NCBI RefSeq assembly: GCF_026210795.1
Contig: NC_089432.1
Coordinates: forward strand, 62,001-126,000
Length of the DNA stretch: 64,000 nt
Origin: Rhizophagus irregularis
Lineage: Eukaryota
Direction: 5' to 3'
Each line of letters starts with the position of its first letter. Position 1 is the first letter of the stretch. The translations under genes were made by a program, and so were the position numbers. The notes below the pieces were generated by a model. The model was given only the letters and a program-made list of their open reading frames with translations. It had not been told where the DNA came from and did no database searches. Positions 23,103 through 59,715 of this stretch are shown in pieces.

Positions 23103-23150
23103 TGTAAACACACTGAAGTGGATGTCAAAGATGTTGACTGTAATATGTTA

Positions 23151-32597: not shown

Positions 32598-35500
32598 GGG
32601 ACCGATCGCGACTCAATAGGTGAAATTTATTAATTACGATTTACGCAAATCTTTACCGAAAATTGCTAAAACTCCTATTTTACCGGATCGTCGTCTCATC
32701 ATGTGATATAATATGCAAATTTTAAATACAGTAATTAATAATGTCGATCCTAACTAAGCCACTTGAAGAGTTTGAAGTCGCCAGAGTTCCACGTCTTCGA
32801 TTTTACTATGGAAGAACGTAAGATTCCGATCATATATTTTTGGCTATTTCAAGCTTTAAATAAATTATTTATGAGCAATTTTAACCAAAATCGGTTAGTT
32901 TTAGATTTTTTTTTTGGGTTTAACCCTATATATAGTTTATTTAGGCATCGTTCCTTTATTTTATTTTTTTTTTAAAACATACTGAGCGGTGTTTAATCAT
33001 AAACATTTACTTTCTACCAGTTTATTTATTATATTATAGTGCGTTATTTACCATATTTTCTGTAGCTTGTTCCTTGAACGTTCGTGCATAAGCTGAGATC
33101 CAATTTTGTATTGTTGTTATCTTAGGGACGTTTTCAGCTTTCAATTCACCAGATTCAACAAATGTCAGCAGTTCATTATACATATCCTTTGCTGACATCT
33201 TATCCTTTTGATTAAGATTTCCATTCAAAAAAAAACTTTTCAACAACTCCTTTACCTGCTTTGTCATTCTTTTTCCCTTTCCTTTTCCTCCTACTTTTTG
33301 ATTGCTTTTTAGCGCCCATCCCATAGGAAATTGAAAATTCATGTCAACAGAACTAATTCAATACAAATCATGTAGGTTTATAATTTGAATTATGTTTGTT
33401 TAAGTTTCACATCTATTTACCTTACATCTTCTAATTCACCATCACCATTATTATTATTATCCATGAATTCTGGTATGCTAGGTGTATCTATATATAGAAA
33501 ATTATTAGTCAAATGTTATGATGAAAAAATTTTATTTCAATCAATCACCTAACAGAGGAATTGTCCAAGTTAATTCAGGTTCAGTTTGTTCAGAAATCTT
33601 TGGATGGGGACGAATAATTGGTTTGGTGCATAGTTTGGCAATTGCAGCAGGAGAAAAATTATTCCATGGACCAAAATGTGGAAGTGATCGGGCACATACA
33701 TAACCTGTCATTTCGCCAGAAATTGGCCATTTCCAGTAAAACAAATTTGAAATACCTTTTATAGTTTTGACATTGGGCTTTGAATTTTGTCCTTTTTTGC
33801 TAATATTATATATTTTTTCATCTTCAGGTTCAAATTGACTTCGATTTGGTTCTAAATTTGCCAGTGATGTACCAGCTAAATGTTTAGCTGCTTCCACTAT
33901 ATCCTCTCCATCACGAATATCATATCCAATCCGAATATATCGTTTGATTGAATGGGAAATCTAAAAAGAAAAGGTAATTTTAATATGAAATTTATTGCAA
34001 TGACTATAACAATAATACTTACTGCAGCATGATGCGAATCAATAGTTGTTTTAGCTTCGCCTGGTTCAAGAAATTGCCAATCACGAACCTCAATTTGATA
34101 CCACTCATTCCAATGTGCAACTATAGCCATAAGTTCTGATGAATGGTAATGTGCCCCATTATCTGAAATTACTCTAATCCACTTTGGTTTATGTTTTATT
34201 GTTTCAAAAACAGCTTCAAATGAGGAGGCTGTAAACCAAGCATCCTGTTTGGTATCAGTTGACCAGTGATCGTAGGCCCTTACATCTAACTCTTTGCAAT
34301 CTTTTTTTTTTGTAAAAACCAGAATTGTATGAAGTGTCCATCCACGTTTTCCAAAAAATTCTGCTTTAGTTTCCCGAGCAGATCTTGGCAAAATTCTCAT
34401 CTTATAATCAACAATAAATAATGCACCATTCTCATCAAGACTGGCCAACGTAGTTTTAAATTGAGCATTCAAGTATATCTTTCGTGTTGTATAGGCTAAA
34501 AAATATTGCAAGTGTTCCTTTATTTCGTCTAAAGAAGCAACTTGATCCTCCATTATATGTAGGTGCATAAATTCAAAAAATTCAAAAAATTTATCACATT
34601 CTGAGCACCGTGAAGTATGTTTTTCAGAACACTTTCCAAAAGCATATGGCAAACAATGGGAAATACAGGGATTATGTATTGTTGTACCATCAGCATTAAC
34701 CACTAATTCTCTTTCATAACCACGACGCAGATGACGCTTTAAATCATCAATTTTTCGCAATACATTATCCTAAAGATATTTAGAAAAGGTAAATTATAAT
34801 ATAATCAAACTAAATAATTTATTTATCAAAATAGATTCCACTTACTAATTGCTCCTTTTGCAAAAATGTATTGCATGCAATAGCTGTTAAAGATTCAAAT
34901 GGAGTATAGCCATATTCATTACAAGTAAGACAAAGTCCACCCATATCATCCCGATATTTAATGTTACTACAGTTTGCTAATCGGCCCATAAATGATGTCT
35001 TTTTCATACCGTTAGGAAAGGTTTCTTCAAATTTTTTCCACAATTTGATTTTTTGATCACGCATATATAATATTGGGGATCCATTTTTATCCACCTGGTA
35101 GGAACTTTGTGCAACTACACTTCGATCCTGAAAAAAAATTAGAAATTGTCTTTCTTTAATTTCAGACATCCGTTTAACAATTCTTTTTGGCTTTATTAGG
35201 CTTGGTGCACCTGGTCCATTAAGTCTTGCATGTTTTCGTGCAGAATTAATTATATCACTTCCTATCTGTAATAATTTAGATTTTTTAAGATTTATTTTAT
35301 AATGAATTCAATATGAATTTTATCTTTACCTTAAACTTTTCTTTGAGTTTTTTGTATGTAAAATTTTCGGCAATTATTGAAAGAATCCTAACATTTCCAT
35401 CAATTCCTCTTTTATTTGTTTCTAAAGCTTTTTGTAAACTTTTCCAAAATGTTTCACTTTCATTATCAGGTTGAGAAAAAGATTTATTTTCTATTACTAA

Positions 35501-36726
35501 TAACATTCCCGATTCAAAGAGTTTTGCTAGATTTTCCCTATCAGATGAAGGATCTGGTGCTTTTGTCCAAAATTCAATCAAATGCCGTTTTTTCATAAAT
35601 GGTGTAATATTTGTACAACCAGAAGCGCAAAACATTGCTCGCCATGCACCTAATTCTTTTTCTTGAAATTGATAATTTTTTGGATAAATCTGATATAAAA
35701 TTGTAGGAAATTGAATTATTGTATTAGTTTGATCGTACCAGTTTGTGAATAATTTTGACCAACTTGAAAATGTGTTGGCAATTTTACGTTTTTTTATATT
35801 TTGTTCGAATATAAGATTCAATATATCAATGTTTTTCCAATTATCACTCGTACAAATAATTAAATTTTTACTCTTTTCTAATTTATTCAATTCTGTCAAT
35901 ATTTGTTGAATGTTATAATCAGTAATTCCAAATAAAGTCGCACCATCATATTTTTTAAGAATACCGATAGTTTCCCAAATTTTATTAGGTGTAGTATCCT
36001 TATTATGATATAATTTTATACCTTCATTATAAATATCTAAACTGCATTCATCTTCTATAGATTGTACAAAAAGTGAACGTTTGTCTGCATATTTTGTTAT
36101 AAGTGTAGAAAGAGATCCATGACCAGCACCATAACATCCTTCACGAGATGAAACACCAATTTTACTAACTACAATTAATATCTGATCTAAGCGAATAAAT
36201 ATTGGAATAAATGAAATATCAGCTACTAACTCATGAACAATTGCTTCATTATCAAATCCCATTACAGCTAATCCTGAATATTTTGTTTTATTACTAAAAA
36301 TTTGGCTATACGTGTTATTAATAGCTGCAGTAGCTGTTAGTTGAGTTCCGGAATCTTTACCATCACAAATACAACGAAAACATGGGTTATGTGTTTGCTC
36401 ATCATTAAGAACTGTTATTGCAAAGTTCTTACCGTTAAGACAACAATTAACAGACATAAATAGTCGATAAGGTATTGGATTTATGCAGTTTTCGTTAAAT
36501 TTGCACGGTTCCCACCAATTTCGTGCATATATTCCATAATGCAAGTCTTCTGAAATAATTCCTTTAGCTAAAAGAGTTACTATATACTGTTTTTTTTTGC
36601 TCATTGTAAAAGTTTTTATAACAAAGAAACCGAAATTCCAAAAAAAGTTTTTTTATTAATAACGAAACTCGTAAAATTAATTATAGATTGTCGATCATTT
36701 TATCCTATCGAGTTCCGATCTGTCAC
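32598..36726. mobile_element. Sola3-like DNA transposon, TTAA target
   Basis: TIRs GGGACCGATCGCGACTCAATAGG and CCTATCGAGTTCCGATCTGTCAC; TTAA on both sides; contains a multi-exon DDE transposase. Confidence 0.8.
33034..36604 (-). CDS. Multi-exon Sola3-like transposase
   Basis: IVDYKMRILPRSARETKAEFFGKRGWTLH, ISDNGAHYH, FLEPGEAKTTIDSHH, C-terminal GWALK; ORFs separated by short GT-AG introns; exon borders approximate. Confidence 0.72.
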
Positions 36727-39289
36727 TTAAGTTTTTTTTTATTTTTACTTAAGGGAACGTAATTAATTCCCTTTCTTTTATTTTTAGGAAACCTGGACGT
36801 AGATGAAGCCATTAACGACCAGGATTTAAAAAAAGAACGAACTATGGTAAGTTTGTTTCTTTTTTTAAGTTTTTTTTTATTTTTACTTAAGGAAACGTAA
36901 TTAACGTTCCCTTTCTTTTTTTTAAGAAACCTGGACGTGGACGAAGTCATTAACGACCAGAATTTAAAAAAAGAACGAACTATGGTAAGTTTGTTTCTTT
37001 TTTTAAGTTTTTTTATTTTACTTAAGGGAACGTAATTAACGTTCCCTTTTCTTTTTTAGTACGAAGGACCAGATCCGAATCGGATTCGGATCGTTCAAAT
37101 TGGATTCAAATGGATCTAAACCAGATTCAGATCAAATTGAACCAGATCTGATCAGATTCGGATCAGATCAGATCTATTAAAATAAAAATCAGATCAGATC
37201 AGATTTAAGTTAAATCCAATCTGAACCGATCTGTTAGGAGCACTAATAATGCATATATAAAAAATTATACTATATATAATTGCTATAAGATGAAAGGTAA
37301 ATCCATATAGGATATCAATCTGCTATATTAGAATTTCGCTTACTTATAATAAAGGTCACCATAGAAAATTGATTCTTTACTAATAATTTTTACCTTACTT
37401 TTTTTTTAAATTCTATTGGTTAATTAGCTAAAAAGGAAAAAATCATAACAATATAACAAATTTCCTTTTATAGTAAAATTTGCAAAGAATTTTATATATG
37501 ATTTATATAAGCATATGTTTATTTTTATATATATGTTGTTATCCCTGTCTGCTACCCAGCGGTAAACAAAGTTTCCTGCTTCTGTTATATGTACTCTCAG
37601 CAAAACATTAATATTCTTGCTTGGTTTAGTTTTAAATCTTTAACTCAATTTTCATCATTTTCTAAGTCACACACAGACTTCTCAATATACATTAGCCACA
37701 CTTGGGCTTTAAAGTCACTAGTCTCGGACTTTCTTAATATACAAGCCACACTTAGGCTTCTCAATAAACCACACTCGGGTTTCTCAAAATAATACGAGTC
37801 ACACTTGGGACTCCTTAATTCTTTATATTCATATTCATTCCATTATTTTAATACTTATTTAACATTAATTAAAACTTAGGCGAACCATAAGAATATTCAA
37901 AATAACTTTTAATAATTAACGTTTTTACAAACATTTATGAACCCTTCATCCATATGATTGTGTACATTCCGACTAATCGAACTACCATGTTCGTGCGTTT
38001 CTCATATATCAAATGGTAAAGGAATTCATTATTTAACATACTTTTTCATCATAAGAAAACAGTATAAAAGAGTCGATAATAATTAATTATGTGTAAAAAG
38101 TATTTTATTTATATTTTGATCTTCATAAAATTCACAACTAATCTAATTACTTAAAATTCAAAATCCTCACTGATGACTGTGGAATTCACTTCCCATTTCG
38201 CTCCTATTTAAACCAACTTTCTTATTATTTCTTTTCTTACTTCTTATTTCTTTCTAATATTTTATGTTATGTGTTATCTTTTATGTACTATCTTTTATGT
38301 ACTATCTTTTATATGCTATCTTTTTGATATACTATTTTTAATATGCTATCTTTTTAATATGTTATTTTTAATATACTATTTTATATACTATTTTATATGT
38401 TATCTTTTTTATCTTTCAAATATTACATTGTAAAGAAATAATTTATAACCCATCTTTATGGCTGTGCTATCTTTTCTTTAAAATAACATAATCTTTCAAA
38501 TATTATATCGTAAAGAAATAATGTTTTTCTGTATCATCTTTTCATATTATCTTTTATATTATCTTTTGTATTATCTTTTATATTATCCTTTGTTTTTCAA
38601 TATTTTATGTATTTTCATTAAATTCAATTTTAATTCGCTATTGTCTCATTTTATATGTTATTTCCATAATCTATCTTTTGTAGCTTATAGTTACTCCTCC
38701 TAATTATTTCTGTTGATGAACTTGATAAACTGGTTGCTAAACCGCATCGATCGACCCTCTTGATTGATCTACTGGTTCGTCGTTAATCATTTAATAAACA
38801 TTACATCATGTAGACCATTTCTTCTCCTAAACATTTATCCTTTCTGGCTAATTATTTATCCGATTATGTGACTTTCTACCATGTAATCTTTTATTCGATA
38901 TATTATTTATCTATTCCATTAAGTTCAATATCTATGGTTACAATGTATATATCATTCTATACAATATTTCTTTTTTATATACTCCATATTAAGGATGGTG
39001 CTGCAAATATGTAATTGCGGAATAATTGTAATTTACAGTATTGCAGAACATTGCAGATTTTTAAATCTAAAAATCTGCAGATCTGCAAATCCGCAATTAT
39101 CTGCAATTCCACAAATACTGTATTTGGCGGTAAATAAGCATATTTTTTTGCTATGAGGGTGCTTAGTTTTGGGGTACTTTTCTTGTGCTAGTAACCATGA
39201 TCGTTTGTACAACAAATTAAATACGGTATGATACTCGCGTTGCTCCTGGTACTTCTCGTAATGCGAGACGACGCATACCTATTAAAATC

Positions 39290-42470: not shown

Positions 42471-42735
42471 TTCAAACTGGTTTGATCCAAATCTTAAACT
42501 TTTTATAAATATTGTGTCAAATAATTTGTTAAAAATCATGTGTAATAACGTAAAATAAATACTATGTTTATTATTAAAAAATTTTTAATTGTCAATTAAT
42601 ATTAATAAAAAGTATTAAGTAGAAAAAATTGAATTCGGATTCATCGGATTCACCGGATTAACCAGATTATTCAGATATCCGGTCAACCATCCGGTCAAAT
42701 TGGTGAGCAAGTATTGACCAGATATCCGATGATCC

Positions 42736-43416
42736 AGTAGGACAATCTTGGGGGTTCTGGGACAGCGGCTATCACATAGGTCTACCATAATTTAGTGTAC
42801 CCCCAGACCACCTAGCCTTGTTTTCTGATATGATAACACTATACCTGTTTTTCTATCCCCAGACCACCTAACCTTGATTCCCGATATGTTATTACTTGAT
42901 AGCTAAAAAGAACCCCCTAAGCGTTATAGATAAGATTAACATCATTTATTCCTAGGCATTATTACCACGCATGAATCCATTCCAGGGTATCATAATTTTA
43001 TGCTATATCAGATTGCCTTTATAAGTGCCAAAGGTATGAAGGACACGAAGTGTCTGTAATACCGATGGCACGATTCAGCAATCCATTGTGGCATACTATT
43101 TTTATGATACTCTAAAAGGGATTCATTCGATGATTTAAGCCATTCATGCTCTAACCAAAAATGTATAGCAGGAAGGCAACTAGACATATTGTAAAGCTTT
43201 CCCTGCTATACGAAAAAATCTGGGACAGTGAAGTCTAACCAAAAATCTGACCCAGGCTTCAACCAAAAATGTATAGCAGGAAGGCAACTAGATATGTTTT
43301 AAAGCTTTTCCTCCTATACGAAAAATTCTGGGACAATGAAGTCTAACCAAAATTTAACCCTAATCATAAATTGCTCTGATTCTTTGACGAAGCCTATTTT
43401 CATACCGATTTTGATA
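42736..43416 (+). repeat. Left TIR of element B
   Basis: Reverse complement of 59033-59715; contains internal direct repeats. Confidence 0.95.
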
Positions 43417-43596
43417 ATAACTCCCAATATGAGATTGACATCGACCACTAGATGAACCTGTAGGTTTACCACATACAGCACAAGGAAAGCGTGATTTTGT
43501 CTTCCAATGAATGCGACAACCTTCTGGCCTCACACAAGGACGACCACAAGGCTTGCCTGTGTTATGTAAATATTCACAAGTATATTCTCCAATCAT
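43360..43596 (-). CDS. Small Cys/His zinc-binding protein whose 3' end lies inside the TIR
   Basis: MIGEYTCEY...KPCGRPC..PEGCRIH...CAVCGKP...RCQSH. Confidence 0.6.
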   Translation of the reverse strand: MIGEYTCEYLHNTGKPCGRPCVRPEGCRIHWKTKSRFPCAVCGKPTGSSSGRCQSHIGSYYQNRYENRLRQRIRAIYD

Positions 43597-43648
43597 TTTT
43601 ATTAAGTATAAATAAGTTAAATTAAAAAAAAGTTTACATGATATAAAA

Positions 43649-44026
43649 ATGATGTCTACCCAAGCTATACCAGCTAAGCCAACATACCGTGAAATTGAAT
43701 CAGCTCTAATTGCTGTAATTAAAGCAGGCATCCTTTACAAGAAACCAAAGGATGGTAAATTCATGTTATGTTACAAACAAAGGATAATCAAATTGCGTCA
43801 AGCAGAAGAACCAGAAAATTTTGTTCTTGAAACAGCACAATCTATTCTACCTAATGAGACAAAGTATCAGCAAATCTTGGAAAATTATAAGACCTGGTAT
43901 AGCAGAGAGCCAAAACTTTTGTCTGCTATTAATAAGCTATACAGGTTATACTATGAATTGGCAAAAGACTACTTCCTCACAGACTCCCAAGCAGATGATG
44001 AGGTAGAAGACTATCTTAATTCATAA
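43649..44026 (+). CDS. Small helical protein shared with element A
   Basis: Intact 125-aa ORF; by-eye similarity to 7717-8185. Confidence 0.7.
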   Translation: MMSTQAIPAKPTYREIESALIAVIKAGILYKKPKDGKFMLCYKQRIIKLRQAEEPENFVLETAQSILPNETKYQQILENYKTWYSREPKLLSAINKLYRLYYELAKDYFLTDSQADDEVEDYLNS

Positions 44027-45125
44027 GTACCCATTGTGGTGGAAGTTCTGTATCATCTGGTATAACCAAAAGTTCTTCCCTCACAAAGGATCTCTCTGAT
44101 TCTTTACCATCATCATCAATAAGCCAGTACAAAACTGGTTGATTTTTCTGTGTTAAAGACATATGGATATGATAAATCTTAGGTGACCAATTCATATCTC
44201 CTGCTCGACGTCTTCCACCTTCCAGATCATTTGGTTCAAGTAAGTACCTTACACTTATATTAGGTGGTAGTTTCTCTTCTTCATACCCAACAGGTCCATC
44301 ACGAGGATAAGAAGATCTGGAAGACACTCGTGATTTTTTTATAGCTATAGCAGGAGATATACCAAGTTGTTGGGTCACTGAGTTATTTATACTTTCTACA
44401 GCAATAGGTAAGTTTTTTACCCAGACTCGAGATCTCGTTTTACCTAAAGTTAGTAAGTCAGATGCATCTTGAGAGGGAAATAGTTTCTCAACCAAGGTAC
44501 GATTATATCGCTCCACAATGCCAACAGTACGCTTAGACTTGGCCTTTTGAATCTTTACACCATGGGAAGTCATCAGCTTTTCACACTCACCTTTAAACTC
44601 TGAACCCCTATCTGTAATCAATAATTTTGGCCAAGTGAGCGGACATGTTGTATCATCATATACCTTTTCAAAAGCCCGAGCAATAGTATGAGAAGTTAGG
44701 ATTCCCTGTCGATTTTTAACACTGGTTGAACCTATAGGAACACTTTCTTTATACCTCGATGCTATATCAACTATATTGAGACAGAAAAGATAAGTCACAT
44801 GTCCAACCTTGTCATATGGCATATACAAAATGTCAGCTTGATGAACTTCATTGGGAACTTGTATAGAACTAAAACTTACACGAGAGATAAATCGGGGACG
44901 AGGTTTGTGGACTTGATGTACTGCCTGTCTTTCAAGCCAATCCTGCACTTCATCTAAGGTGAAATCATATCCAGCATTTTGTGATGTCTCATACAACTTT
45001 TTGGCAGTCCTCTGATATCCAGATGGTTGGTAGAATATCCTGCATAAAGCCGAAGTCACCTCTACATTTCGTGCTTCATCAGAATCTATTGGAATAATAG
45101 GAATCAATGGGAGTTGAACAGGCAT
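44016..45125 (-). CDS. Polinton-type rve integrase, intact, no chromodomain
   Basis: FYQPSGY..KKLY...VQDWLERQAVHQVHKP, HQADI, ITDRGSEF, VERYNRTL, NWSPKIY...FVREEL; ATG at 45125. Confidence 0.93.
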   Translation of the reverse strand: MPVQLPLIPIIPIDSDEARNVEVTSALCRIFYQPSGYQRTAKKLYETSQNAGYDFTLDEVQDWLERQAVHQVHKPRPRFISRVSFSSIQVPNEVHQADILYMPYDKVGHVTYLFCLNIVDIASRYKESVPIGSTSVKNRQGILTSHTIARAFEKVYDDTTCPLTWPKLLITDRGSEFKGECEKLMTSHGVKIQKAKSKRTVGIVERYNRTLVEKLFPSQDASDLLTLGKTRSRVWVKNLPIAVESINNSVTQQLGISPAIAIKKSRVSSRSSYPRDGPVGYEEEKLPPNISVRYLLEPNDLEGGRRRAGDMNWSPKIYHIHMSLTQKNQPVLYWLIDDDGKESERSFVREELLVIPDDTELPPQWVLMN

Positions 45126-47191
45126 ATCTTGATTTGTTAAATAGCAACTTTGATTTGCGCAAACAGCTAGTTCAAGAGGAAACAAATAATATTTCCAATA
45201 AGGAGAAAATCCGTAAACTCACAAAGGAGATAGAGGCATGTGAACGATATATCTTCTATCTTGAAAAAAATCTTGTTTCACGTGAGGATGAAATCGATCG
45301 GTTAAAGGCAGAGTGTCAGTCCACTTTAGTTGAACTTGGAAAGTATCGAGATCACTTAGAGTTAAAGGAAGAGGCACTTGTTGCCCAGGATGAACGTATC
45401 ATTCAGCTTGAAGACACAGTAGATAAACTCAAAAAACGCATTCAAGAATTATCTTTATGTAAAGGAAAGATAGAAATGGATGAAGATAATGAATTATTCA
45501 ATCCTATTCTAAGAATACTAGACCGCCGACGGGCAGTTGCAGATTGTGTGTCTGAGATTAGACTATTTTTTGATCGGAATAGGATTCCAATTCCACAAGA
45601 CATAGATGATGTCTTTAATGCTACACTCAAAGTCTTGATGAAATTATTCGTCAAGCTGCTCTAATGCAAGAAATTGGTGTAGACCAACTAAATCAGATAG
45701 AAGGATTGCAGACATTACTTGGAGAATCTTTAGATCGTACAAATACTCTTAATCAAGACTTAATAAGAGTACGTGATGATTTTACATATGAGAGAAATGC
45801 TCGTAGACACTGGGAAACTATTGCACAACAGAATCAAGCACGTATTGCAGGAATACAAATAGCCAATCTAGGTATACGTTTTCTGAATAGACGCAAAGAT
45901 GCACAACTGGCAAACCAACAGAATCAGCTGGTAAATCAACAGAATCAGATAGCAAACCAACAGAATCAGATAGCTGAGCATAGAAGGAATGCACACAAGC
46001 TGATGTTACGCTATAATGCTGATACAGAACGTTGGAGAAGAAGGCATGCAGGTTGTATACGTCAGGCACAAAACTGGCAAAGACAATATAGGATTTCACA
46101 GACCCAGGTACAAGCACAGGCCCAAAATATTTTAAATTTACAACAACAAATATTAGCGTTACAAAACAATCCTCCAAACATGGCTACAATACAAGATGTC
46201 ATGCATACTATATCACCAGGTCTTGCACAGTTACCATTTTATGATGGACAAGAGCCGCCAGACTCTTATTATCAAAAGCTTAGAGCTGTCAATGAGATGG
46301 CTCGTCCACTAGCTTTTGCTGGTTTTAATGCTGCTATGAGATGCAGTGTTATGAAAAATAAAATGTCTGGTAGATTTATTCCTATTCCAGCAAATAATCC
46401 ATATAATGCCAATGCTGCTATTAATACAGAACCAGAGTTTCTAAACTGGCTGCAAGGAAAATATAGAGATGTGATGGTTGGAACAAATCAAGGTGCTATA
46501 ATAGCACTCATGAATGAATCATTTTCTTCTATAGATACACCAGATACATATGCAAAAAGGATTCGATCATTAGCACAAGGACAAGTATATGCTGAAATTT
46601 TACCTTATCTATATAATCATTTGCCTGATGTTTTAGAAATGAGAGTTAGAATTGCTGCTCCTGCTGATCTTGATGCTTTCTTTAATGAGTTACGTAATAA
46701 ATGGTATGAAAGTGGAGGGCGAAAAAATCCAACCACTATAGTAGAACAACCACAGAATAGAACTGCATTAGAAAAGCTTGCAGATATAGCAGTACGTCTT
46801 GGCTATACTGGTGACATAACAAATCCCTGTAGCAATACATACTTTCATTGAGAGTGATCTTACCAGAAAGTTAGGTGGACAAACACAACATCTAAGAAGA
46901 GATCACTTCGGAACTGGTCAGGTTAAAAAGGTGACAAAGACAACCAAATCTTCTCCTAAACGTCATTGCTCAAACTGTGGTAGAACAGGTCATTCCAAGA
47001 ACAAGTGTTCACGGAGTAGATGTACTAAGAAAGTTAACAATACTCACATAGTTGACTATGAAGAATCTGAAAGTGATGAGGAAACTGATGAAGAAACTGA
47101 GGAAGAGTTAACTGAAGAAGAGGAGGAGGAGGATGAACCTCAGAATTGCTTTAGTGTAAAAAAAAAACTTGTCGACGTGGAGTTTTGGTAA
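45107..47191 (+). pseudogene. gag: Gag-like polyprotein (coiled coil, capsid-like domain, CCHC zinc knuckle, acidic tail); two 1-nt frameshifts
   Basis: LPFYDGQEPPDSYYQKL, WLQGKY, DTPDTYAKRI...HLP..LEMRV, CSNCGRTGHSKNKC (CX2CX4HX4C); frameshifts near 45630 and 46830. Confidence 0.8.
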
Positions 47192-48099
47192 AAAACAAAG
47201 GGAAGAAATCCCGTACTTCCAAATCTAAAAGAGAACCTATTCTCAAGAAAACTGATGAAGTCTTTCATGCAGCACTGAAGTCTATAATTGCTTCACTAGC
47301 AGCACAATGTCCTAAAGAAATCCTCCTACAGATTAATGCTTATACCAATCAAGCATATGAGAATCTGAAAGACCCGCTTTTAAATCATTTTGTTAGTGAC
47401 TATCCAGTTAGTGAAAGAAAGAAACTCTGGGATGTTCTTTCAGCAAATATGCAAGACATTTTATCTCCTTTGGTTCATATTGTTAATACTACAATAACGC
47501 CGCTATTGCCAACTCCTCCTGTAGATGCGCCACCTGAAGTAGAACAAAAAGATGATAAAACATTGAATCATGCAATTCGTGCTTATCAGCAGAAAAACTT
47601 ATACTGGCCAAGACCCATAGAAATCAACTTTCTGCGGTTAGATGATCCCAATGATGTTGCGACCATTTCCTGTAAAATCAAAAATGTATGCATACCCTAT
47701 GCCATGATCGATACAGGGTCTGACTCCTCAGTAATCTCTGAAAATGTAGCTAAGCATCTAGGTCTCAAAATAGATCGGAAGAATGTGCATGCGCTTAATG
47801 GTGTAGCTGGATCAACCAAAACTCTTGGCACTATCAATGAGATCCCTATAACCATCGGAGAAGGAGAAAATTTGATCACCATTTCAGATGAATTTTCTGT
47901 CATACCTACTGAGAAGGATCGAAATGGTAAGGACAAATCATTGCTAATACTTGGTACACAGTGGCAGTATCGTGCAGGATGGGAACCGGTAGTAAAGGGA
48001 GAATTCAAAGCTAATGTGAATGGTAAGTCTATTTCCATTCCTCTTTCTGTTCACAAGGCTCAGCGAAATGTCTTTTCAGTTGAGGTTAAAAAAAACTAA
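47155..48099 (+). CDS. Retropepsin aspartic protease in the -1 frame of gag
   Basis: YAMIDTGSDSSVISENVAKHLGL, LNGVAG flap, LLILGTQW; frame opens after TAG 47152 just before the A10 run. Confidence 0.88.
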   Translation, partial: CKKKTCRRGVLVKNKGKKSRTSKSKREPILKKTDEVFHAALKSIIASLAAQCPKEILLQINAYTNQAYENLKDPLLNHFVSDYPVSERKKLWDVLSANMQDILSPLVHIVNTTITPLLPTPPVDAPPEVEQKDDKTLNHAIRAYQQKNLYWPRPIEINFLRLDDPNDVATISCKIKNVCIPYAMIDTGSDSSVISENVAKHLGLKIDRKNVHALNGVAGSTKTLGTINEIPITIGEGENLITISDEFSVIPTEKDRNGKDKSLLILGTQWQYRAGWEPVVKGEFKANVNGKSISIPLSVHKAQRNVFSVEVKKN

Positions 48100-48416
48100 C
48101 TGATCGCACCTGCCAGTATTGTAATAAGGAGTTTCCCTATCCTTCTTATCTCAGACAACATTTTTTACGAAAAAACCCATGTGCAATAAAAGAATCCCAT
48201 GTGCATCCCACGCAAAGCCCATGCGAAGTTAAAAAATCTCATGTGCAACCCACGCAAAGCCCATGCGAAGTTAAAAAATCCCATGCGCAACCCATGCAAA
48301 TTCTATGCGCAGTTACCACTGAAGGAGGAGGAAAAAAATCCCATGTGCAAACCATGCAAAGACCGGAGCAAGCAACTGTTCCTATTCGACTATTTCTCTC
48401 CTCTGGTTATGAATAG
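48090..48416 (+). CDS. Zinc-finger/repeat ORF in the -1 frame of the protease, with no ATG upstream of the finger
   Basis: KKLTDRTCQYCNKEFPYPSYLRQHFLRKNPC followed by SHVQPTQSPCEVKK repeats; starts at A AAA AAC right after TAA 48087. Confidence 0.6.
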   Translation, partial: KKLTDRTCQYCNKEFPYPSYLRQHFLRKNPCAIKESHVHPTQSPCEVKKSHVQPTQSPCEVKKSHAQPMQILCAVTTEGGGKKSHVQTMQRPEQATVPIRLFLSSGYE

Positions 48417-48853
48417 ATGTAAAATAACGTTCTCTAACGTAATTCAAATCATATCCAGGATGAAGATTATTGGGTTTAGGAAGACGATCTCCACATAAAA
48501 CAATATCATAGGCCATGTTTGGTGATGATTTACGAAGTTTATAACAGTATTAGTGTTTATATGATGATTTGCGAAGTTTATACTATGTATTTATCAGATT
48601 CAGTCGATCAGAGGTCCCTTAGGACCGGACAACTCGAAGGATTACCAGCTCGGAGGATGTTCATCAAGCCACATGCGTGTACTCCTGTGCAACAAAATAA
48701 ATGATCACACGGCAGGGTCTGTACAACATCCACATTTTTCACATATACCCCCACTTGGTATTTTTGCGCAAATAAAATTCTTTTTTATTCTTGTCCTCAC
48801 ACACCGTACTTTGAGCCAATAACATTTCGCAAAAAACAGTATAAAACCCGAAA

Positions 48854-50354
48854 ATGTCAGTCACGTTATTCTGCCTTGTCAAAGGAAATACGACCGCGAA
48901 CGCTTTCGAAGTTGATATTGAGAAGGACAAGTCTATTAGCAAACTCAAGGACGCCATAAAGGCGAAAAAAGCACCAGAGTTCGACAATTTTCCTGCGGAC
49001 AAGCTCAGGCTATGGAAAGTGGAAATTGGTGGCGATCACCTTGACGATCAGTTGAAGAATCTCAAACTCAATGGCAATGACGAGTTGTCTGCAATAAACG
49101 AAATTGGAGAGTACTGGACCGAGACGCCGCCTAAGAAACATATTCATGTCTTAGTCGAACCACCCGTGTCAACCGTCACTTCAAGTCGCGAACAGGAATT
49201 ACTTGACCAAGTCGCTTCGTTGCAGGCATTACTCAACAAGTCCGTGCATGGTACGTATTTTTTACTTACGAGCCGTCAGCGAAATCTTCAGGTCATGAGA
49301 CTAACCCGGTTATTGCATTATAGCGTTCGATGTCGTCGTGAGTCCGAAGCGAACGAAGAGCTTCAAGTGGACAGTGAATATCGAACACGCGACTCTCGAA
49401 GGACTAAAAGAACATATACGTGGAGTTCACAAGACACCGGCCCTCGACAATGATGGAGCGGAACTTAGCATGTTAAACGACAGTGGGAAATTCTCTCCTC
49501 GAAACGATCAGGGTCTTCGTGAGATGCTTAACGTATTCGTGTCGAAGAACAATCTCAAGTTCACCGTGTTCATTGAGACGCCATCAAAACCATTTTCAGA
49601 TTGGTCATTCCCGAAGGTGTGCCAGCTTTATGGTCTTGGCGAGTCAGACGATCCCTCGTTATCAGTGTTCCCGCCTTTCACTTGCGAGTATAAAGAACTG
49701 GAAGAGGATTCTTCCAAGGCAATACTCAAACATCTTACTGCGGAGCTGAATGCTCGTCTCAAGGCTATTCCAATCAGCGGGAATGAAGCATCGAAATCAC
49801 AATATGTCTGCTCCTATCTTGTCGCCGGGGTAAATCTGTACGAGAGGAAGTTCGAGCTTCGACCAGAAAAAAACATCACAGGACCCAATGGACACGGACC
49901 GGTTGATTTCGCAATAGACTTGCTCCAAACTGCGAAAACTGTCGGTGTGACAGAGGTAAAGGACGAAGATTTTTTTAAGGGTATTGCTCAGAATGCCGTT
50001 CAACTCGAATCCGCATTATCAAACCGTAAACGTAAGGCGAATGAGATGGAGGAAGAGAGTGTGTTTGTAGGTAAGGTATTCGGGATAATCACAGATGCGG
50101 AAAAATGGTACTTTATGGAATGTTCGCTCGATGATCAGGACAGGCTAAGATTCAAACTATCCGAACCTATTGTCGTTGTATACAAGGACGAGAATATGGA
50201 AAACATGGTTAGGAAAGTTCTCGGACATATTGCATGGTTATTGGAGGAGGTGCAGAAGCCGGATTCAGCTTCACAAAGTGAAGAGAGGGCAATAAAAAAG
50301 CCTAGGTCATCGGGTAATCTTAAGGAAAAATCGGATACGGTCGTTAAGTCATAG
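48854..50354 (+). CDS. CRN: Crinkler-family effector (CRN ubiquitin-like N-terminus + REase-fold C-terminus), two exons
   Basis: TLFCLVKG..AFEVDI..LKDAIK..LRLWKV..HIHVLVEPP; intron 49251-49323 (GTACGT..GACTAAC..TAG) joins in frame; GPVDFAI..TEVK..GIAQNAVQL. Confidence 0.88.
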
Positions 50355-50652
50355 GATAGAAAATTAGTCATGTATCACGGGCAAAGTCCCGAGCATTTTA
50401 ACTCGTACTTCAACACCTGTATAATGGGATGCGTCCCGAACCAATGTATTTATTTTTTATCCTCAGTCTGTATTAATAAAACATTCACTCGAAAACACGT
50501 ACACACACGTTTTAAATGGCAAAGAAATAGATTTTATTATTCATGATATATAGGTTTTGCAAACGAAAAATAAAACGGATAGCGGATGTTTCAAGTGAGG
50601 AATTTGCCGGCCACTAGACCATATAATGGCAGTTCCTTCCCGCTATCCTTTA

Positions 50653-51392
50653 CTAACTATTGTTAATTTCATTATTGATATTACTACTGCTATTGATATT
50701 ACTACTACTATTACTCGCGAAACTAACTACCCTTTTCCCCTCCCTTTCTATCCATGGAGTTAATTTATCCATCGTAGTTTTTCTTGGATTCGTTCTGTGA
50801 TGATAGAAACTGGCTAATGTGCCAGGACTTAGTCCGATCTCATCGGATAATATATTGTACATTTGTGTAGGAGAGCGATTCCCCTTTTTTCTTCTCTGAT
50901 CGAAAATGGCAGTGAATTCAACCCAATACATTTCTGTTTCGTCGTCATACTCGGAACGTTTGCCAGTAGTTGAACGACTTGCAGAAGAGAATCGGTTTGA
51001 TCCTACTAGAAGAAATGAGGCGCAGGTTATTATGTAACGTCACGGGCAATGAATCATATGCGGACTGCGGACTGCGGACTGTGACGTGCATGCTTACCTT
51101 GTGAGATTACGTCATTCCGCCACTCATTTTCAGCGCGCATTTTTTGAAGTTCATTATTTAGCGCCAGGACCGTTCTTTCAAGTTCATTATTTGTCCCGGA
51201 CTGATATTTACGAAAAAATGACAATGCACCAGCTAAAATTGCGTATGTGAAAACATTTCCCGAAAAAACATTCTGGAGCATATCCATTGTTAAGATGCCT
51301 CGGGTATGCAGGGTTCCCAAAAGAACCGGCATCTCATGGATTACGATTATGGAAATGAAGAGTGTAATCAAAAAAATATCACGTCTGTTCAT
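50653..51392 (-). CDS. Two-exon gene: hydrophobic N-terminus, coiled coil, C-terminal HTH-like domain
   Basis: Intron 51097 to ~51003 (GTAAGC...TAG) joins ORF 51054-51392 in frame with ORF 50653-50931 (LSDEIGLSPGTLASFYH..TNPRKTTMDKL). Confidence 0.55.
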
Positions 51393-52051
51393 GCTATCTG
51401 TAGTTTAAATTGTTTCAAAAAGCACTATGCAATTTTATTTGGGACTTTTGAGATAATAACAGTTGAAGAGTGTTAACTTTAAAAACGGGAAACAAGGTCC
51501 TTTTATACTTTATTAATACTGCGCGAGAGATTTAACCGCATGATTACTAAAGGGGTATCCGTAGTTTTTTTATTAACACCCAAAATTGGTAGAGAATGAG
51601 TAATTGCGCAATCTAGAATATAGGTTAACAGTTAAATAATGCCCCTTTTCATTGTTATACAGTCACTTCGATCGCCTTATAATGCAATAGAAATCGATCG
51701 ACGGTACCACAGCATCAAATCAGGGGCATAACAAACATTGTTGACTCATGGTCTGTTTTAATTAACGTAATTTACGCTACACAAAATTTATGCCAGAACT
51801 TTCAGGACCGCCTATTACTCAGTATTTTTACGTATATACTGCGGCATATTTTACATATGATTTCGTGACTTATTCTCACATAATTCAAAAAAATTCTGCG
51901 GCTGCGGTAGTCACATGGTTGAGCAATAGATTATATGCGGTTACGCACTACACAATTATTATGAATTATAGGTGATCAAGCAAGGATCAGGTAATTCATG
52001 TCAGCAGGCAAATGAAGATAAGTATTTTAGTACAAACTACAAACCGTAGCT

Positions 52052-52402
52052 ATGGAACCAGTCTTACCAAATGATTCTATCCTTAGTGCAGAATACGAGA
52101 CCCTAGGGTTAATAGACAATGATAACAGCAATGGATCTGTGATAGATAATGAAGACGATGAAGTTTGGGATGATGGTGATGAAGATGACTCTGATGATGA
52201 TCACGACATTTTGGGTATCAGAGACGGACACGATTACATAGCTTGTTATGGTAGAGATGCTTGGGATAAACTTATTCAAGCCCAGGAGGCTCGTCATCGT
52301 ATATCCTTCTTAGGTTATTTACCCAACGCCTTCCAAATATTTCTGAGCAAGCAAAGAATGGACTATTTGATATATTTACCGAATCATCTGCTTTTGGAGT
52401 AA
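52052..52402 (+). CDS. Acidic hypothetical protein
   Basis: 116-aa ORF with a D/E-rich stretch, inside element B. Confidence 0.4.
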   Translation: MEPVLPNDSILSAEYETLGLIDNDNSNGSVIDNEDDEVWDDGDEDDSDDDHDILGIRDGHDYIACYGRDAWDKLIQAQEARHRISFLGYLPNAFQIFLSKQRMDYLIYLPNHLLLE

Positions 52403-52885
52403 GGGAACACAATGCACTTTTAGACGCACTAGCTGATCCAGTGAATGGTTTAAGTCTTTTCGAATATGATCAACTGTATTACTAATTCATCGGAAGACTT
52501 GCTTTATTAATACGCGAAAAAACAAATAGAGGATCAATCCGGCATTGGTTCGGGACGAAGCCCGCAATACATGACGCCTGTGCTAATATACACGCTTAAT
52601 TTTTTAGCCTTTGGCAGTGATACTGCGGCCACTTTACATATGATATCAATGACGTAATACTGCGGTGTGATTTCGTGACCTTTCTCACATGATTCAAAAA
52701 ATGTTACTTTATTTATTCGTAACAGCAATCGATACATAAAAAACGAATATATTACGTTACAAGTCATAATAATAGCAGGTTCGCCCATGTCACAACACCG
52801 AAAAAGGACCCCCTAGATCGGTGTAGTAATTATAACTTTCTTTTCCTGATAGGTGCTATTGAAGGGACATAATAGATAATAGTAA

Positions 52886-53190
52886 TTATTTTTGCCCTGA
52901 GCAGACCAATCCCCCCATATGCCTGAAACTGCTGACGTTGTTGGACTGATGCTCATTCACCACCGAAGAGTCCTGTTCCACTTTTGCGAGTCTGGATTCG
53001 GCATCCTCTCCATTCTTCTCCAACTCCTCGATCTTATTCCCTAGTTCCTTCCTGAGATTTGCTACCTCGCGTTTAAGATTGAAATTCTCAGCCTCAAAGC
53101 TCAGTACTACACCGTTTAAATACGTTAAGTTCGGCATTCTCAGCCTTCAGCTCAGAGATACACTGTCTCAAAACTTCAAGTTGGTTAGCT
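52886..53190 (-). pseudogene. Coiled-coil protein fragment
   Basis: Heptad-rich EAENFNLKREVANLRKEL; appears rearranged. Confidence 0.35.
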
Positions 53191-53359
53191 TTGTTAACGG
53201 ACATTATAGAAATTATATTCGACATGAATTTGTTTAATGTTATGAGAAAAAAAAATTACGAAAGCGGGACACTGCGTACTTTATTTAATAAAACATTGCC
53301 GAAAGTCGGCTTACAATACATAAAAATTGCGAATATATCGCTACATGATACAAAAATTA

Positions 53360-53656
53360 TTATTCTGATTCTTTTTCCTTCGGTAATACAGGGTGTACGG
53401 TGATATGAACGTAGTCTGTATCGGGTTGACCATTAAAATATTCAGAAATTAAAGTCTGCGATTGCATACGTCTTTCATTAACACTGCTAGGATGAATTTG
53501 ACGAATATCTAGAGGAATGTTATTAAAAGACGCCCCTAGATTGTTTCGAATTGCGGTTTCAAGAGCGCTAACTGTTTGTCCCCTGTCAATTGTAATTCTT
53601 CTATCACATAGAAGATCATTAGAAACAATACGGCAGTTGAGAGTAATATCGGTCAT
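53360..53656 (-). CDS. Stand-alone CRN-N-like ubiquitin-like domain protein
   Basis: MTDITLNC..ITIDRGQTVSALETAI...ISEYFNGQP..VHITVHP. Confidence 0.6.
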   Translation of the reverse strand: MTDITLNCRIVSNDLLCDRRITIDRGQTVSALETAIRNNLGASFNNIPLDIRQIHPSSVNERRMQSQTLISEYFNGQPDTDYVHITVHPVLPKEKESE

Positions 53657-53884
53657 ACTGGAATCCTGAATACATATGGAGGCCCTTAGTGAGATTATTT
53701 GCATGAAAACATTTTCATTATTTTCAATCTCTTGCATATACGCACCTTAATTTTTTGCGAGAAGGTTGAGTAAACTTCTACCTGTCCTTTTACGCTTTAT
53801 ATACTGGAACTTGCAGAATAAGAAGCCGAATACCGAATATAAGAAAGATGATTAACATTGTCGTATGATGCCAAGAAACCTTTG

Positions 53885-54160
53885 AAAGCACATGCAAGCG
53901 GAATTTTCAAACCTTTTCACATGAAGATCTTCCTCGCAAGTCTCAAAGTAGCTTTACGCCTGGCGATCTCGGAATTGCAAAGTCCTCAGCCTTTCATAAC
54001 ATATGCTTTTGACGTTAATATTGACTTATAGGGTAGACCTGTGTTGCGTGTAGACTTTCTTTCACATTTTTCTCACATTTGTTTGGGGAAAAAAATAAAG
54101 GTACTAGTTGGCATGAATATTTTTTCAATATATGCGAAAATTAATATGTCGCACAGACTT
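53885..54160. repeat. Copy of the dispersed repeat at 28110-28375
   Basis: Collinear matching blocks in the same orientation. Confidence 0.8.
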
Positions 54161-54529
54161 GCCTTGTGATCTGCCTATTTTTGTCGCACAATCAGTGGCT
54201 CAGCAAAAATTGATGATCGTCTCTCCGCAATGCCTGACCTGTTGATCATATTCTCCGGGACTAGGGCACCTGTCTGTTGACCTTTAGCGTTTCCGACACT
54301 TGTCCGCGACGAGGACCATGTCGTTTTTTATGTCAATGACAGTATCCTTGTCAACAACCTCGTCAATATCATCTTCAAGTGATTTAAGACGGGAGCAGTT
54401 TTCCTCGCCGGATGAATGTTTTTGTCGTACCATGTCATTTGTCATTTTAGTGATGTGTCCTAATACTAACCGCACGTCTAAACAGATAATACGTTATATA
54501 TGCTATATCTTGTTTGAAAAAATAAATTC

Positions 54530-54826
54530 TCACCTTGACCGATTCTCCAGGATCGCCTTCTCTTGCCCTTCTGGGCACTCTACAGAAGCTAGTAGTGAAT
54601 AATAAAATGCCTCTACTAAGTCATAAAAGGCTTTTGGAATGTTTGGTACAGGGCATTTCATAAATGCATCAATACTAGTCTTAGAACTTATGACCATTTT
54701 AGCTAATGCCTTTATACTTTTTATTGCATCCTCTACATCTTTAAAGAGACCTCTCTGAATTGTAACATGCACTAGGTCATCGATATATTCTTTACTATGT
54801 ATATCATAGATTGGATCGTCTTCCAT
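54530..54826 (-). CDS. Hypothetical protein downstream of pPolB
   Basis: MEDDPIYDIHSKEY... ORF co-oriented with pPolB; may be spliced to 54284-54475. Confidence 0.4.
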   Translation of the reverse strand: MEDDPIYDIHSKEYIDDLVHVTIQRGLFKDVEDAIKSIKALAKMVISSKTSIDAFMKCPVPNIPKAFYDLVEAFYYSLLASVECPEGQEKAILENRSR

Positions 54827-54899
54827 TTTAACTACTGAGAAAAAAATATAATTTATTATTAATATATGCCTAAGTATCACTAAACTATTCTATATCATT

Positions 54900-57800
54900 C
54901 TAATATTTCTCTGGTAATCTGGTTCCTATAGCTATTTTTTCTGCTGTCTCATGACTTGTGCCACGCTCAAGAAGTTTCTTATATACTTTAATACGCCAGT
55001 GTCCGAATGGTAAGGAGGATATACCATCTGACCAAATCCAGCGTTTTGTATCAATTGGGGATAATGCCTTCTTCTCTGACTCAATTAGTGATATTACATG
55101 ATTTTTTGTACGCATTCCTACATTCTTGGCATAGAAGATATTATTTTCAAAAAGACAGTCCCGATATACTTGAGTCATAGGATCGAAGATTTCATCTTTT
55201 TCTACTGTATCATCTAATAAAGTTCCACCTAAAGATGGGAAATATGTGTCCTTAGCCATATCACTCATACCCTTCTTGCTTACTCCTTTATGTTTGGACT
55301 TTGTAGACTTGTCAGCCAAGATATAGTGGTAAGATTTTGCACGGATGTGGTAGGATTCAGTAATTACATTTCCAGGAGTCTCATCCTTGAAAAGTCCGAT
55401 AGTCTTGGTATCATTAAGGTCAAAGAGATCTGGACGCTCTGCCATATCCTTGTAAATATCTTCTGTCTCAACATGGTAGATAAAGGAGTCAGTATCCATA
55501 TATCCAAGTCGTGCCTTGTCTCCATACTTCTCCTTGACAAAACCATACCAGAAGCAGTACATTAAGAGTTTACTGAGACCGAGGACTGATGCACCAATGA
55601 TAATAGGCTTATTGAGAATAACACTAGCCTTACCCATATGTGCTCCTACAAGTGTGTTGCCAAGTTGACGAGCATACTTGAAGGAGGGCTTGCGGATTTT
55701 CTTAAGGAATTTCTTCTCATCATTTTCATTGATCATTCTCATAAGCTTGACATCCTGATATTTACGTACATTCTCCATAGTCTTGCCATAGACTGAGTTA
55801 TTCATGAGTTTAAAGAAGTCTTTCTCAAATGAATTCTTGGATTGTTGACGTAAATTTGTATTTTTTGCAATATAAGGAGCTAACCAGTTATCCTGATCAA
55901 ATGATAGGACTTGTGTAATCTCATCTACAACCATGCCTAACTTAATGTAATACTGGAGCTCTTGGTAATGTATGACATAATCTTCATGTTTACCAAGATG
56001 TGGAACTAACTTCTCTGTTTCAGGGAATCGCCCTCCATCTAAGTTATTAACAAGTTTGGTTATATATGGACTTAACCTATCCTTTTTTACAGCTATACTA
56101 TTAACTGCAGGAGGTAAATCTTGTAGATAATCATGAGTCTTAAGAGGGAAGTGCGCTTTGATATTTAGGAAGTAACCACGGGCAGCATCTGGTTTTGTAT
56201 TAAGAATTACATTAAGTATTTGCTTCTGCTTATCTGGATTCTGTTTGAAATATTCTGGAGATGCTTCCCATCTGTAATTACCAATAGGTAAGTACTGGCT
56301 CATAGCCCATCCATACAGATTGTTTGCATCTACATAGGAAATCCAAGTAGTAGGTTTAGAGGGATTAAAGGAGTCACCCATCTTAGGGTTATTGGCTTTT
56401 AAGAAACGGTGTCCAGCCATAGCTATTCCTCCACGTTTAGCCTTTTCAGTAAAATCATGCATGGTCATGTCAGTGAATAGCTCTATCCTGATTCCAGTCA
56501 TCTTGAGCATGCCATCCCAAGAAAGTGCTGGAGCAGAGACATAATGACTTGGGTCAAGTCCATAATGATGCATCGCTGTCTGTCGAAATTTTGTCCAGAC
56601 ATCTGCTAGGAGAAGAACATCAGTCTTAAGGTAAAGGTCATGATACTCGCCCAAGTTCTTGCAGCCAAATTCCTTCCAAACTTTTTGTGCATGTTTGTAA
56701 TTATTCTGAGTGATCTCTCCTCCAAGAGTACTATAAAAGTCATGAATAGATGGGAGTTCTGTCTCCTTGAAACGATCATGTGAATCAATATATTCATAAG
56801 GATAAACCCCCTTACGTGTGATTAGGTCAATATGTTCAGACGAGAAGTTTTTAAAGTGTCGCTTTGTGAGAGGTTTATCTGTCCCTAAATTCTTTGCAAG
56901 GTTTGCAAGACTGGAGGCCATGAACTGCATGCTGTCAATGTACTTGAATTGCCCTACCTTCATGGATTTGTAACGTTCGAATGTCTCTGCAATAACTTTG
57001 ATTTAATGTGCTCCAATTGATCGTCCAACAGATTCACAAACTAAATGGGAGTCATAGCCACGGAAATTGTGGAAGACTACAGGAATTGGAGTCTTCCATG
57101 CTTCAATTTGAAGCTTAAGATTGCATGCATTATGAGCAGCCCCACGAAATTTACCTGTGATGTGGCAGTGATCCCAAACTTTTTTGTCCTGATCGAAATT
57201 TCCATTACATATCCAACAATTAACTGCTTCAGTGAATTCCTTTTTAGCTTCCTCTGTTACAATACGTTCTACTTTTACTTCTAAAACATCATTAATCCTT
57301 CTTAATTCTTTATCAAGTCTGCGGACAAACTCTTCTGTTGCATTTGGTCCTCGGTATAAAAATGGCCCCCATGTCTCATCAGTTTCAATCCAGTGGACCA
57401 TATAGCAGAAGCTATTAGCCTTTTGCTCCATAATCTTATGCATATTTCCACCATAGTTTTCATTACACTTTCTATTATCAGCCTCAAAGTCTGCAATAAT
57501 TACACATGGAGCATACATTGTTCGGTTAAAATTCTTAAACTCCTCAAAATCATTCTTACCTTTAACTGGTAACTCAACTCTTTGTGGTGCCTCACCTAAT
57601 CCAAAACACCATTCCTGATGATTAGTTAGAGATTTAGACGATGGAAAGCTTTGGAAGCACCGATTGCAAAGATACTTCTTTCCCTTGTGGGATGTATCTT
57701 TGTATATTAAAGCATCAGGATTCTTAATCCAAAGGAAGTGGTTCTTCTGACCATACTTCCCTTCATCTGATTTTGTAATATCTGTAAGGGCCATGAGGTG

Positions 57801-58958: not shown

Positions 58959-59032
58959 ACTGGTTGTGTACTAATAACCTAAAAATTTTTTTCTTCAATT
59001 AATAAATTCTAAAATGTTTCCCATCTTATTAC

Positions 59033-59715
59033 TATCAAAATCGGTATGAAAATAGGCTTCGTCAAAGAATCAGAGCAATTTATGATTAGGGTTAAATTTT
59101 GGTTAGACTTCATTGTCCCAGAATTTTTCGTATAGGAGGAAAAGCTTTAAAACATATCTAGTTGCCTTCCTGCTATACATTTTTGGTTAGACCTGGGTCA
59201 GATTTTTGGTTAGACTTCACTGTCCCAGATTTTTTCGTATAGCAGGGAAAGCTTTACAATATGTCTAGTTGCCTTCCTGCTATACATTTTTGGTTAGAGC
59301 ATGAATGGCTTAAATCATCGAATGAATCCCTTTTAGAGTATCATAAAAATAGTATGCCACAATGGATTGCTGAATCGTGCCATCGGTATTACAGACACTT
59401 CGTGTCCTTCATACCTTTGGCACTTATAAAGGCAATCTGATATAGCATAAAATTATGATACCCTGGAATGGATTCATGCGTGGTAATAATGCCTAGGAAT
59501 AAATGATGTTAATCTTATCTATAACGCTTTAGGGGGTTCTTTTTTAGCTATCAAGCAATAACATATCGGGAATCAAGGTTAGGTGGTCTGGGGATAGAAA
59601 AACAGGTATAGTGTTATCATATCAGAAAACAAGGCTAGGTGGTCTGGGGGTACACTAAATTATGGTTAGACTTATGTGATAGCCGCTGTCCCAGAACCCC
59701 CAAGATTGTCCTACT
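59033..59715 (-). repeat. Right TIR of element B
   Basis: Reverse complement of 42736-43416. Confidence 0.95.

Follow-up and report, generated by a model that had tools for sequence, protein, structure and literature searches.

Shells made of Gag are associated with elements that reverse-transcribe, and jelly-roll capsids with Polintons. Polintons and adintoviruses are recognised by a protein-primed family B DNA polymerase (pPolB), an rve integrase, terminal inverted repeats (TIRs), a 5-bp target duplication, AG...CT ends and their size (PMC10748475). Table S1 of Krupovic et al. 2014 (PMC4028283) lists three Glomus/Rhizophagus Polintons without MCP, penton or adenain-type protease, one of them with an ATPase. 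Fig. 5 of Starrett et al. 2021 (PMC8502044) carries the labels 'Matrix/Capsid/NC/Pro' in elements with an adintovirus-like PolB, a 2026 preprint describes A32-like ATPases in Glomus and Rhizophagus, and Mavericks are among the recently expanded elements in mycorrhizal fungi (PMC8647823). A literature search conducted largely outside subscription journals found no paper analysing Gag in a Polinton. The comparisons reported here indicate that a Gag-Pro module in Polinton-like fungal elements is real and conserved.

The window analysed is a 64,000-nt stretch of Rhizophagus irregularis DNA, in which the gag gene sits within a Polinton-like element of 16,982 bp (42736-59717); homologues of its product at 92-97% identity are R. 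irregularis proteins. The left TIR (42736-43420) begins AGTAGG and is preceded by GATCC (42731-42735), and the right TIR (59029-59717) ends CCTACT and is followed by GATCC (59718-59722). The arms, of ~690 bp, are 97-99% complementary, and both they and the 5-bp target duplication (GATCC) on the two sides fall within the ranges used for Polintons/Mavericks (TIRs of 100-1500 bp, duplications of 5-8 bp). Direct repeats of 43 and 100 nt within the TIR (42798-42896 and 43145-43352) are candidate binding sites for element proteins. A small Cys/His-rich ORF (43360-43734, minus strand) extends into the TIR and has tblastn matches in two metagenome loci (L007, L023). A conserved ORF of ~125 aa (43616-44026, plus strand), tail-to-tail with the integrase gene, has matches in four (L005, L006, L007, L023) and zero matches to Pfam or PHROG families.

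The rve-type integrase expected of a Polinton/Maverick is encoded by an open frame of 369 aa (44016-45125, minus strand), whose Pfam rve match (E 8.5e-7) scores 29.6 bits, below the curated cut-off of 32.6. At the other end of the element lies a Polinton-type family B polymerase gene with an EndoVII domain (54900-58970, minus strand), which in this assembly has an in-frame stop at 57003-57005; the contigs from sequencing run X1 that cover this position belong to another copy. The window PolB ORF gave no direct Pfam PolB match, and its assignment as the protein-primed type of family B polymerase that defines Polintons/Mavericks was made via homologues. Those of the PolB of a metagenome relative, L001, carry PF03175, one being an adintovirus PolB at 41%, and PolB homologues occur in Paraglomus, Entrophospora, Cetraspora, Scutellospora and Glomus. 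Between gag-pro and PolB, a C2H2-finger ORF (48090-48416, plus strand) followed by 42-nt tandem repeats adjoins ~6.2 kb of variable cargo (48420-54590), in which 48845-50354 is a Crinkler-domain gene and 53360-53746 a further Crinkler-like ORF. This cargo is missing from L001, and contigs from runs X4 and X6 diverge at 54590; the core element is ~10.8 kb without it and 17 kb with it. In locus L009, an F-box ORF was seen at the position equivalent to the Crinkler cargo of the window.

None of the 82 element ORFs of at least 55 aa matched RT or RNase H in a Pfam scan that also missed PolB and was thus not fully sensitive. The same scan, whose profile set did not include Polinton MCP, gave no match to jelly-roll capsid, penton or adenain and no A32/FtsK-type packaging ATPase; the same library did flag the ATPase of a neighbouring element, weakly (Pox_A32, E 0.0019). 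RT was likewise missing from the selected metagenome-locus ORFs scanned, and the element contains no LTR-like direct repeat, only short local repeats of 42-100 nt. In L001, the ~310-bp gap between protease and PolB leaves no room for RT, and the span from integrase to PolB is occupied by gag, protease and the C2H2 ORF. An earlier sequence-only reading of this DNA had described an element with no RT in a Polinton-like setting without an ATPase, and on both points the TIRs, target duplication, integrase, PolB and ORF scans agree with it. The genes are on mixed strands (integrase and PolB on the minus strand, gag on the plus strand), so that no single sense RNA encodes the whole element.

The gag gene (45107-47191, plus strand) lies head-to-head with the integrase gene, and their first ATGs overlap by 19 nt (45107-45125). 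In 11 of 11 sequences checked (the window, L001, L004, L006, L007, L022-L025, L027 and L038) the two first ATGs were found head-to-head, overlapping or at most 52 bp apart; since this leaves almost no space for a promoter or 5' UTRs, the transcripts must overlap or be spliced. The motifs quoted by the sequence-only reading are all present in the window (LPFYDG, starting at 46231, then PDSYYQKL, DTPDTYAKRIRSL, HLP and LEMRV, and the knuckle CSNCGRTGHSKNKC at 46967-47008), but they do not form one protein as assembled: the CA-like part falls in one ORF (45619-46851) and the knuckle in another (46820-47191), which is in a different frame. Aligned with the intact L001, the window gag is one base short after 45623 and has one extra base at 46825. 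Both indels are absent at full depth from four runs from four studies (X1, X2, X4, X6), and a 4161-nt contig from X1, which may be the source of the window, is otherwise identical to the window, differing by these two gaps only. Since they are missing from four sequencing runs, the two indels are likely assembly errors. Gag is most likely a single ORF of ~695 codons (45107-47191), and in the run contigs and in relatives the CX2CX4HX4C knuckle does share one ORF with CA. Three more single-base indels, at 42551, 42783 and 43257, do not occur in any of the four runs; as the assembly carries indel errors, other frameshifts in the window may also be artefacts.

Gag begins with a predicted coiled-coil region of ~355 aa (45107-46179) that has weak coiled-coil Pfam matches and is kept in relatives. 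A CA-like domain of predicted fold (46180-46719) follows, starting at a conserved Met that might also serve as the start of a shorter CA-NC product lacking the coiled coil. Beyond it lie a single CX2CX4HX4C knuckle (46967-47008) with basic flanks and without an aromatic base-stacking residue, and an acidic Glu/Asp tract (47060-47137), which in L001 has a net charge of -20. Relatives are single ORFs of ~620-740 aa with a coiled coil, the conserved Met, CA, a basic knuckle, an acidic tail and a terminal KKK. Homologues of Gag numbered 64 at E<=1e-3 and 377 in a library clustered at 50%, and the CCHC is intact in 47 of the 54 relatives that reach the end of gag, which argues that the motifs are not chance. 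The CA part had no Pfam, PHROG or PDB sequence match apart from those in the knuckle region, and the knuckle alone matched Pfam zf-CCHC below cut-off (E 0.028). A cluster look-up with 10 proteins returned none named Gag or Polinton among the members listed. The CA-start Met (46180) is conserved in the window and 17 loci, mostly in the context aacATGG. One 157-aa member of a Gag cluster (P0494) is filed under a Mycoplasmataceae endobacterium MAG, by contamination or transfer. IMG/VR scans with both Gags of the window and PolB found zero relatives, a result that says nothing on the absence of particles, and metatranscriptome X19 contained four small contigs at depth 2-4, one of them over the knuckle, which falls short of proof of transcription.

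An AlphaFold2 model of 46180-46818, built from 24 sequences, had a pLDDT of 82 and a pTM of 0.50. Foldseek with this model returned no match at E<=0.001, its top rows nonetheless being MLV, HIV and Copia capsids. In a wide VIA-align search, the first 38 rows were all CA or Gag-derived (PEG10, Copia, dArc, Ty1 Drt2, MLV, RSV). The best match, the PEG10 CA-CTD (rmsd 2.5 over 82 residues), reached Z 10.9, below the value of ~13 under which the tool advises caution with helical models, followed among others by Copia CA (9.4), dArc2 (9.1), Ty1 Drt2 (8.3) and MLV (8.2). Two-domain CA alignments had an rmsd of 10-13 A, and the N-terminal helical lobe was aligned within whole-CA matches only (Copia, 151 residues, rmsd 13.5). 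For a helical model, Z values of this size are moderate; the CA call draws its weight from the uniform list of 38 CA rows. In the ESM Atlas, neighbours of the homologue P0011 carried Retrotrans_gag, Ty3_capsid, zf-CCHC or PNMA (scores 0.92-0.94, 130-162 shared features). These models support a CA-type fold for the Gag domain, including the CA C-terminal-domain fold expected of a retroviral Gag, and structure prediction, which the sequence-only reading had proposed as a check on its CA-like domain, has come out in that domain's favour. A complex prediction with four CA copies scored 0.29 against a mark of 0.32, which is evidence neither way.

Downstream, a linker and retropepsin (47155-48099, plus strand; DTG at 47710-47718) are encoded in the -1 frame relative to gag, with no ATG near the 5' end; the protease matches Pfam Asp_protease_2 above cut-off (E 8.2e-7). 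At the end of gag lies a run of ten A (47158-47167, plus strand), the sole run of at least 9 A on the plus strand of 44016-48100 and the predicted site of a -1 slip into the protease frame. Of 16 loci tested, 13 have 9-10 consecutive A followed by a protease in the -1 frame; the exceptions are L003, L014 and L035, two of which have broken gag frames. No conserved stimulatory RNA structure was found behind the A run in 12 sequences (z -2.05 to +1.31). A minority Gag-Pro fusion is predicted as the product of a -1 slip on the A run, which would be ribosomal or transcriptional.

The relatives bear on whether gag-pro is a core gene or a passenger. Forty of 42 metagenome loci match the CA region, although most are short and several are near-copies; the other two (L041, L042) had no tblastn match and were treated as spurious. 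The integrase is head-to-head with gag in all 13 loci that extend far enough upstream, and PolB is present in 5 of the 42, mostly short, loci. L001 contains integrase, a gag frame of 697 codons, protease, the C2H2 ORF and an open PolB frame of 1413 codons within 8.5 kb. The position of gag is fixed in relatives down to 36-45% CA identity. Between the window and L001, dN/dS was 0.21 for CA, 0.27 for NC, 0.05 for protease, 0.13 for integrase and 0.22 for the coiled coil. Across loci, the medians were 0.32 for CA (149 of 253 pairs usable), 0.30 for NC (29 of 45), 0.30 for integrase (18 of 66), 0.26 for the coiled coil (10 of 55) and 0.23 for protease (22 of 45), and dN/dS was below 1 in all usable pairs, indicating purifying selection. 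Distances measured on integrase correlate with those measured on CA (rho 0.54, p 0.011; 12 loci, some of them with partial integrases). The conserved integrase-gag-protease order, purifying selection, co-variation of integrase with CA and absence of an LTR together argue that gag-pro is a core gene of the element, not a passenger. The synonymous distance between the window and L001 is 0.24-0.27 in gag versus 0.66-0.89 in integrase, protease and PolB, which may reflect a swapping of modules between copies or, alternatively, constraint on the silent sites of gag.

A second, degraded Polinton-like TIR element occupies 2028-17156 of the window and carries an SF3/D5-like helicase, PF03175 PolB pieces, an A32-like ATPase and an rve-chromo integrase. 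It also encodes a Gag that differs from the first (11641-13810), with a predicted CA fold and no knuckle, and a retropepsin in the -1 frame (14420-15172). The model of this second Gag matches CA in its first 34 rows (HERV-K Z 9.3, PEG10 8.6), and none of 120 homologues listed for its family has a knuckle. When the profiles of the two families were compared (probability 2.7%, E 0.017), the result did not show a shared origin. Many homologues in the second family are called from a Met equivalent to that at the start of CA in the first. The second element is inserted in a host repeat array of ~130 bp and has many frameshifts. The end of its gag is interrupted by a ~550-bp insertion (~13811-14361) that has short inverted ends and what looks like an 8-bp duplication, and which we take to be a hAT-like MITE. 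Elsewhere in the window, palindromic MITE-like repeats were seen at 19588-20679, 23141-23684 and 62664-63200, and a 7.8-kb stretch bounded by inverted repeats (29419-37245) has transposase-like ORFs.

Pointing to the single-strand binding of this type of knuckle in retroviral NC, the sequence-only reading had suggested that Gag might package ssDNA or RNA without an ATPase, which in detail was not supported. In MMLV, HIV-1 and RSV, the NC proteins stack single-stranded bases on an aromatic residue that follows the first Cys (PMC1635273, PMC7599994). The residue at this position is aromatic in 0 of 59 distinct knuckles of the present family and Ser in 53, so that the knuckle gives no pointer to ssDNA or RNA binding in the retroviral manner. 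Four divergent Gag relatives have a DPMEID-like motif and no knuckle; on the CA tree, knuckle loss (5 knuckle-less rows among 50) clustered no more strongly than in shuffles. L025 has both a knuckle and, beside the integrase, an A32-like ATPase with Walker A, and the two are therefore not alternatives. Since the second element also combines CA with an ATPase and no knuckle, and some relatives are knuckle-less, these gene sets indicate that Gag-Pro is the constant, and that knuckle and ATPase vary among elements.

We give an even chance to a model in which the Gag shell co-assembles on the element's own replicated DNA and would carry it, with the integrase, to other nuclei. The excised linear element would be copied by its own polymerase, and Gag would assemble on that DNA together with the integrase, the basic knuckle region binding DNA mainly by charge, so that no motor would be needed. 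Slippage would yield a minority of Gag-Pro, whose protease would mature the shell, cutting the coiled coil and the acidic tail away from CA and NC, and the shell would then bring DNA that is ready for integration to a further nucleus within the coenocytic hypha. As the cargo, a double-stranded form is preferred to a single-stranded panhandle, given that rve integrases work on duplex ends and that the stacking residue is missing from the knuckle. Support for this model comes from the predicted CA fold, the signs that gag-pro is a core gene, the lack of LTR-like repeats, the mixed strands of the genes, and the second Polinton-like element, which has another polymerase type and also encodes a CA-fold Gag and a -1 protease. 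Counting against it are the moderate fold scores, the A run without a conserved structure behind it, the three loci with a protease outside the -1 frame, the empty IMG/VR scans, the PolB stop in this copy and the length of 17 kb with cargo, which exceeds the 10.8-kb core, and it offers no explanation for why some relatives do without the knuckle and others keep an ATPase.

Gag particles might instead pack RNA, either their own or element mRNAs, as PEG10 and Arc do, and spread integrase and PolB messages or proteins and not the genome. The nearest folds (PEG10, Copia, Arc), the knuckle kept in 47 of 54 complete relatives and the selection of RNA by retroviral CCHC knuckles (PMC1635273, PMC7599994) are consistent with this. 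However, there is no RT or LTR to turn RNA into a TIR-bounded element, the gene layout is divergent, the stacking residue is missing from 59 of 59 knuckles and the second Gag family is knuckle-less, all of which make RNA packing quite unlikely. It is also unlikely that no transmissible particle is formed and that Gag serves as an intracellular scaffold or chaperone, or as a decoy restricting LTR retrotransposons in the manner of Ty1 p18/Drt2. Restriction factors are truncated CA pieces, whereas here strong selection maintains a whole CA, the knuckle and a frameshift-linked protease whose DTG is intact, a combination that usually signals assembly and subsequent maturation. Such a role would nonetheless fit the presence of Drt2 among the top folds, the empty IMG/VR scans, the ATPase retained in some Gag-bearing elements and the existence of capsid-less Polintons as pure transposons (PMC4028283).

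Selection of a single-stranded panhandle by the knuckle, which would thereby replace the ATPase, starts from an intermediate that the sequence-only reading described correctly, since a racket-like ssDNA form is part of the published model of Polinton replication (PMC4196379). Long TIRs permit a panhandle, and this element and L001 have a knuckle without an ATPase match, and the neighbouring element has an ATPase without a knuckle. We nevertheless regard this reading as very unlikely in view of L025, with its knuckle and Walker A-bearing ATPase, the missing stacking residue and the loss of the knuckle in four divergent relatives. Two points would fit a reading of gag-pro as what remains of an LTR retrotransposon that had inserted into a Polinton: Ty3/Gypsy insertions in Polinton-like elements have been reported (PMC10120064), and the window copy of gag looks frameshifted. 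This origin is largely refuted and extremely improbable: the frameshifts are missing from four runs and are likely assembly errors, gag occupies a fixed position in relatives at 36-45% CA identity and is under purifying selection, and there is no LTR or RT. A nested retrotransposon was rejected on these grounds.

The element family itself is probably known. By description, not sequence identity, this element and its neighbour appear to belong to the same families as the 2014 Glomus Polintons: Polinton-1_GI / P_Gi1.1 (11,954 bp) and P_Gi1.2 (11,019 bp) of Glomus (Rhizophagus) intraradices come from the same host; P_Gi1.1, like the present element with its core of ~10.8 kb, is without an ATPase, and P_Gi1.2 has one, like the neighbour. 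Unlike the Gag-bearing element described here, these are listed in a table without a Gag column, and the main text of that paper does not use the word 'gag' (PMC4028283). As far as seen, the mix of Gag and Polinton genes has been labelled once before, without analysis: Fig. 5 of Starrett et al. ('MELD viruses and related elements'), going by its legend, labels Gag/retropepsin in a like context. Section 3.4 of that paper does not discuss that element, and analysis of frameshift, selection, knuckle or mechanism is absent from that part. The searched part of its supplement mentions neither Rhizophagus nor Gag, and its figures and Table S1 may name this element.

A Polinton with Gag-Pro as its sole structural module would amount to a capsid swap between two virus realms. 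It would explain the 'capsid-less' Glomus Polintons of the 2014 list and offer a route for gene movement among nuclei of mycorrhizal fungi, and it opens to experiment the question of whether DNA with no RNA stage behind it can be packaged in a CA shell. More tentatively, and at somewhat less than an even chance, we suggest a chimeric virus lineage of Glomeromycota: a Polinton-kind DNA-to-DNA replicon with linear DNA in a retropepsin-matured Gag shell, without reverse transcription and, in this branch, without a packaging motor, which would have arisen with two Gag families that differ greatly and with two types of polymerase, and would ferry host cargo such as Crinkler genes between nuclei. 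With LTR-retrotransposon and retroviral Gag-Pro, PEG10, Arc and PNMA, the element shares a predicted, possibly two-lobed CA, a CCHC knuckle and a -1 retropepsin. It differs in lacking RT, RNase H and LTRs, in encoding its integrase as a separate gene on the opposite strand, and in its long coiled-coil N-terminus, its knuckle without an aromatic residue and its bare A run without conserved downstream structure. With Polintons/Mavericks and adintoviruses (the EndoVII-bearing PolB type) it has in common pPolB, rve integrase, TIRs, target duplication, AG...CT ends and size; where those encode jelly-roll MCP/mCP, adenain and an ATPase, none of which was recognised here, this element carries a Gag-retropepsin module instead.
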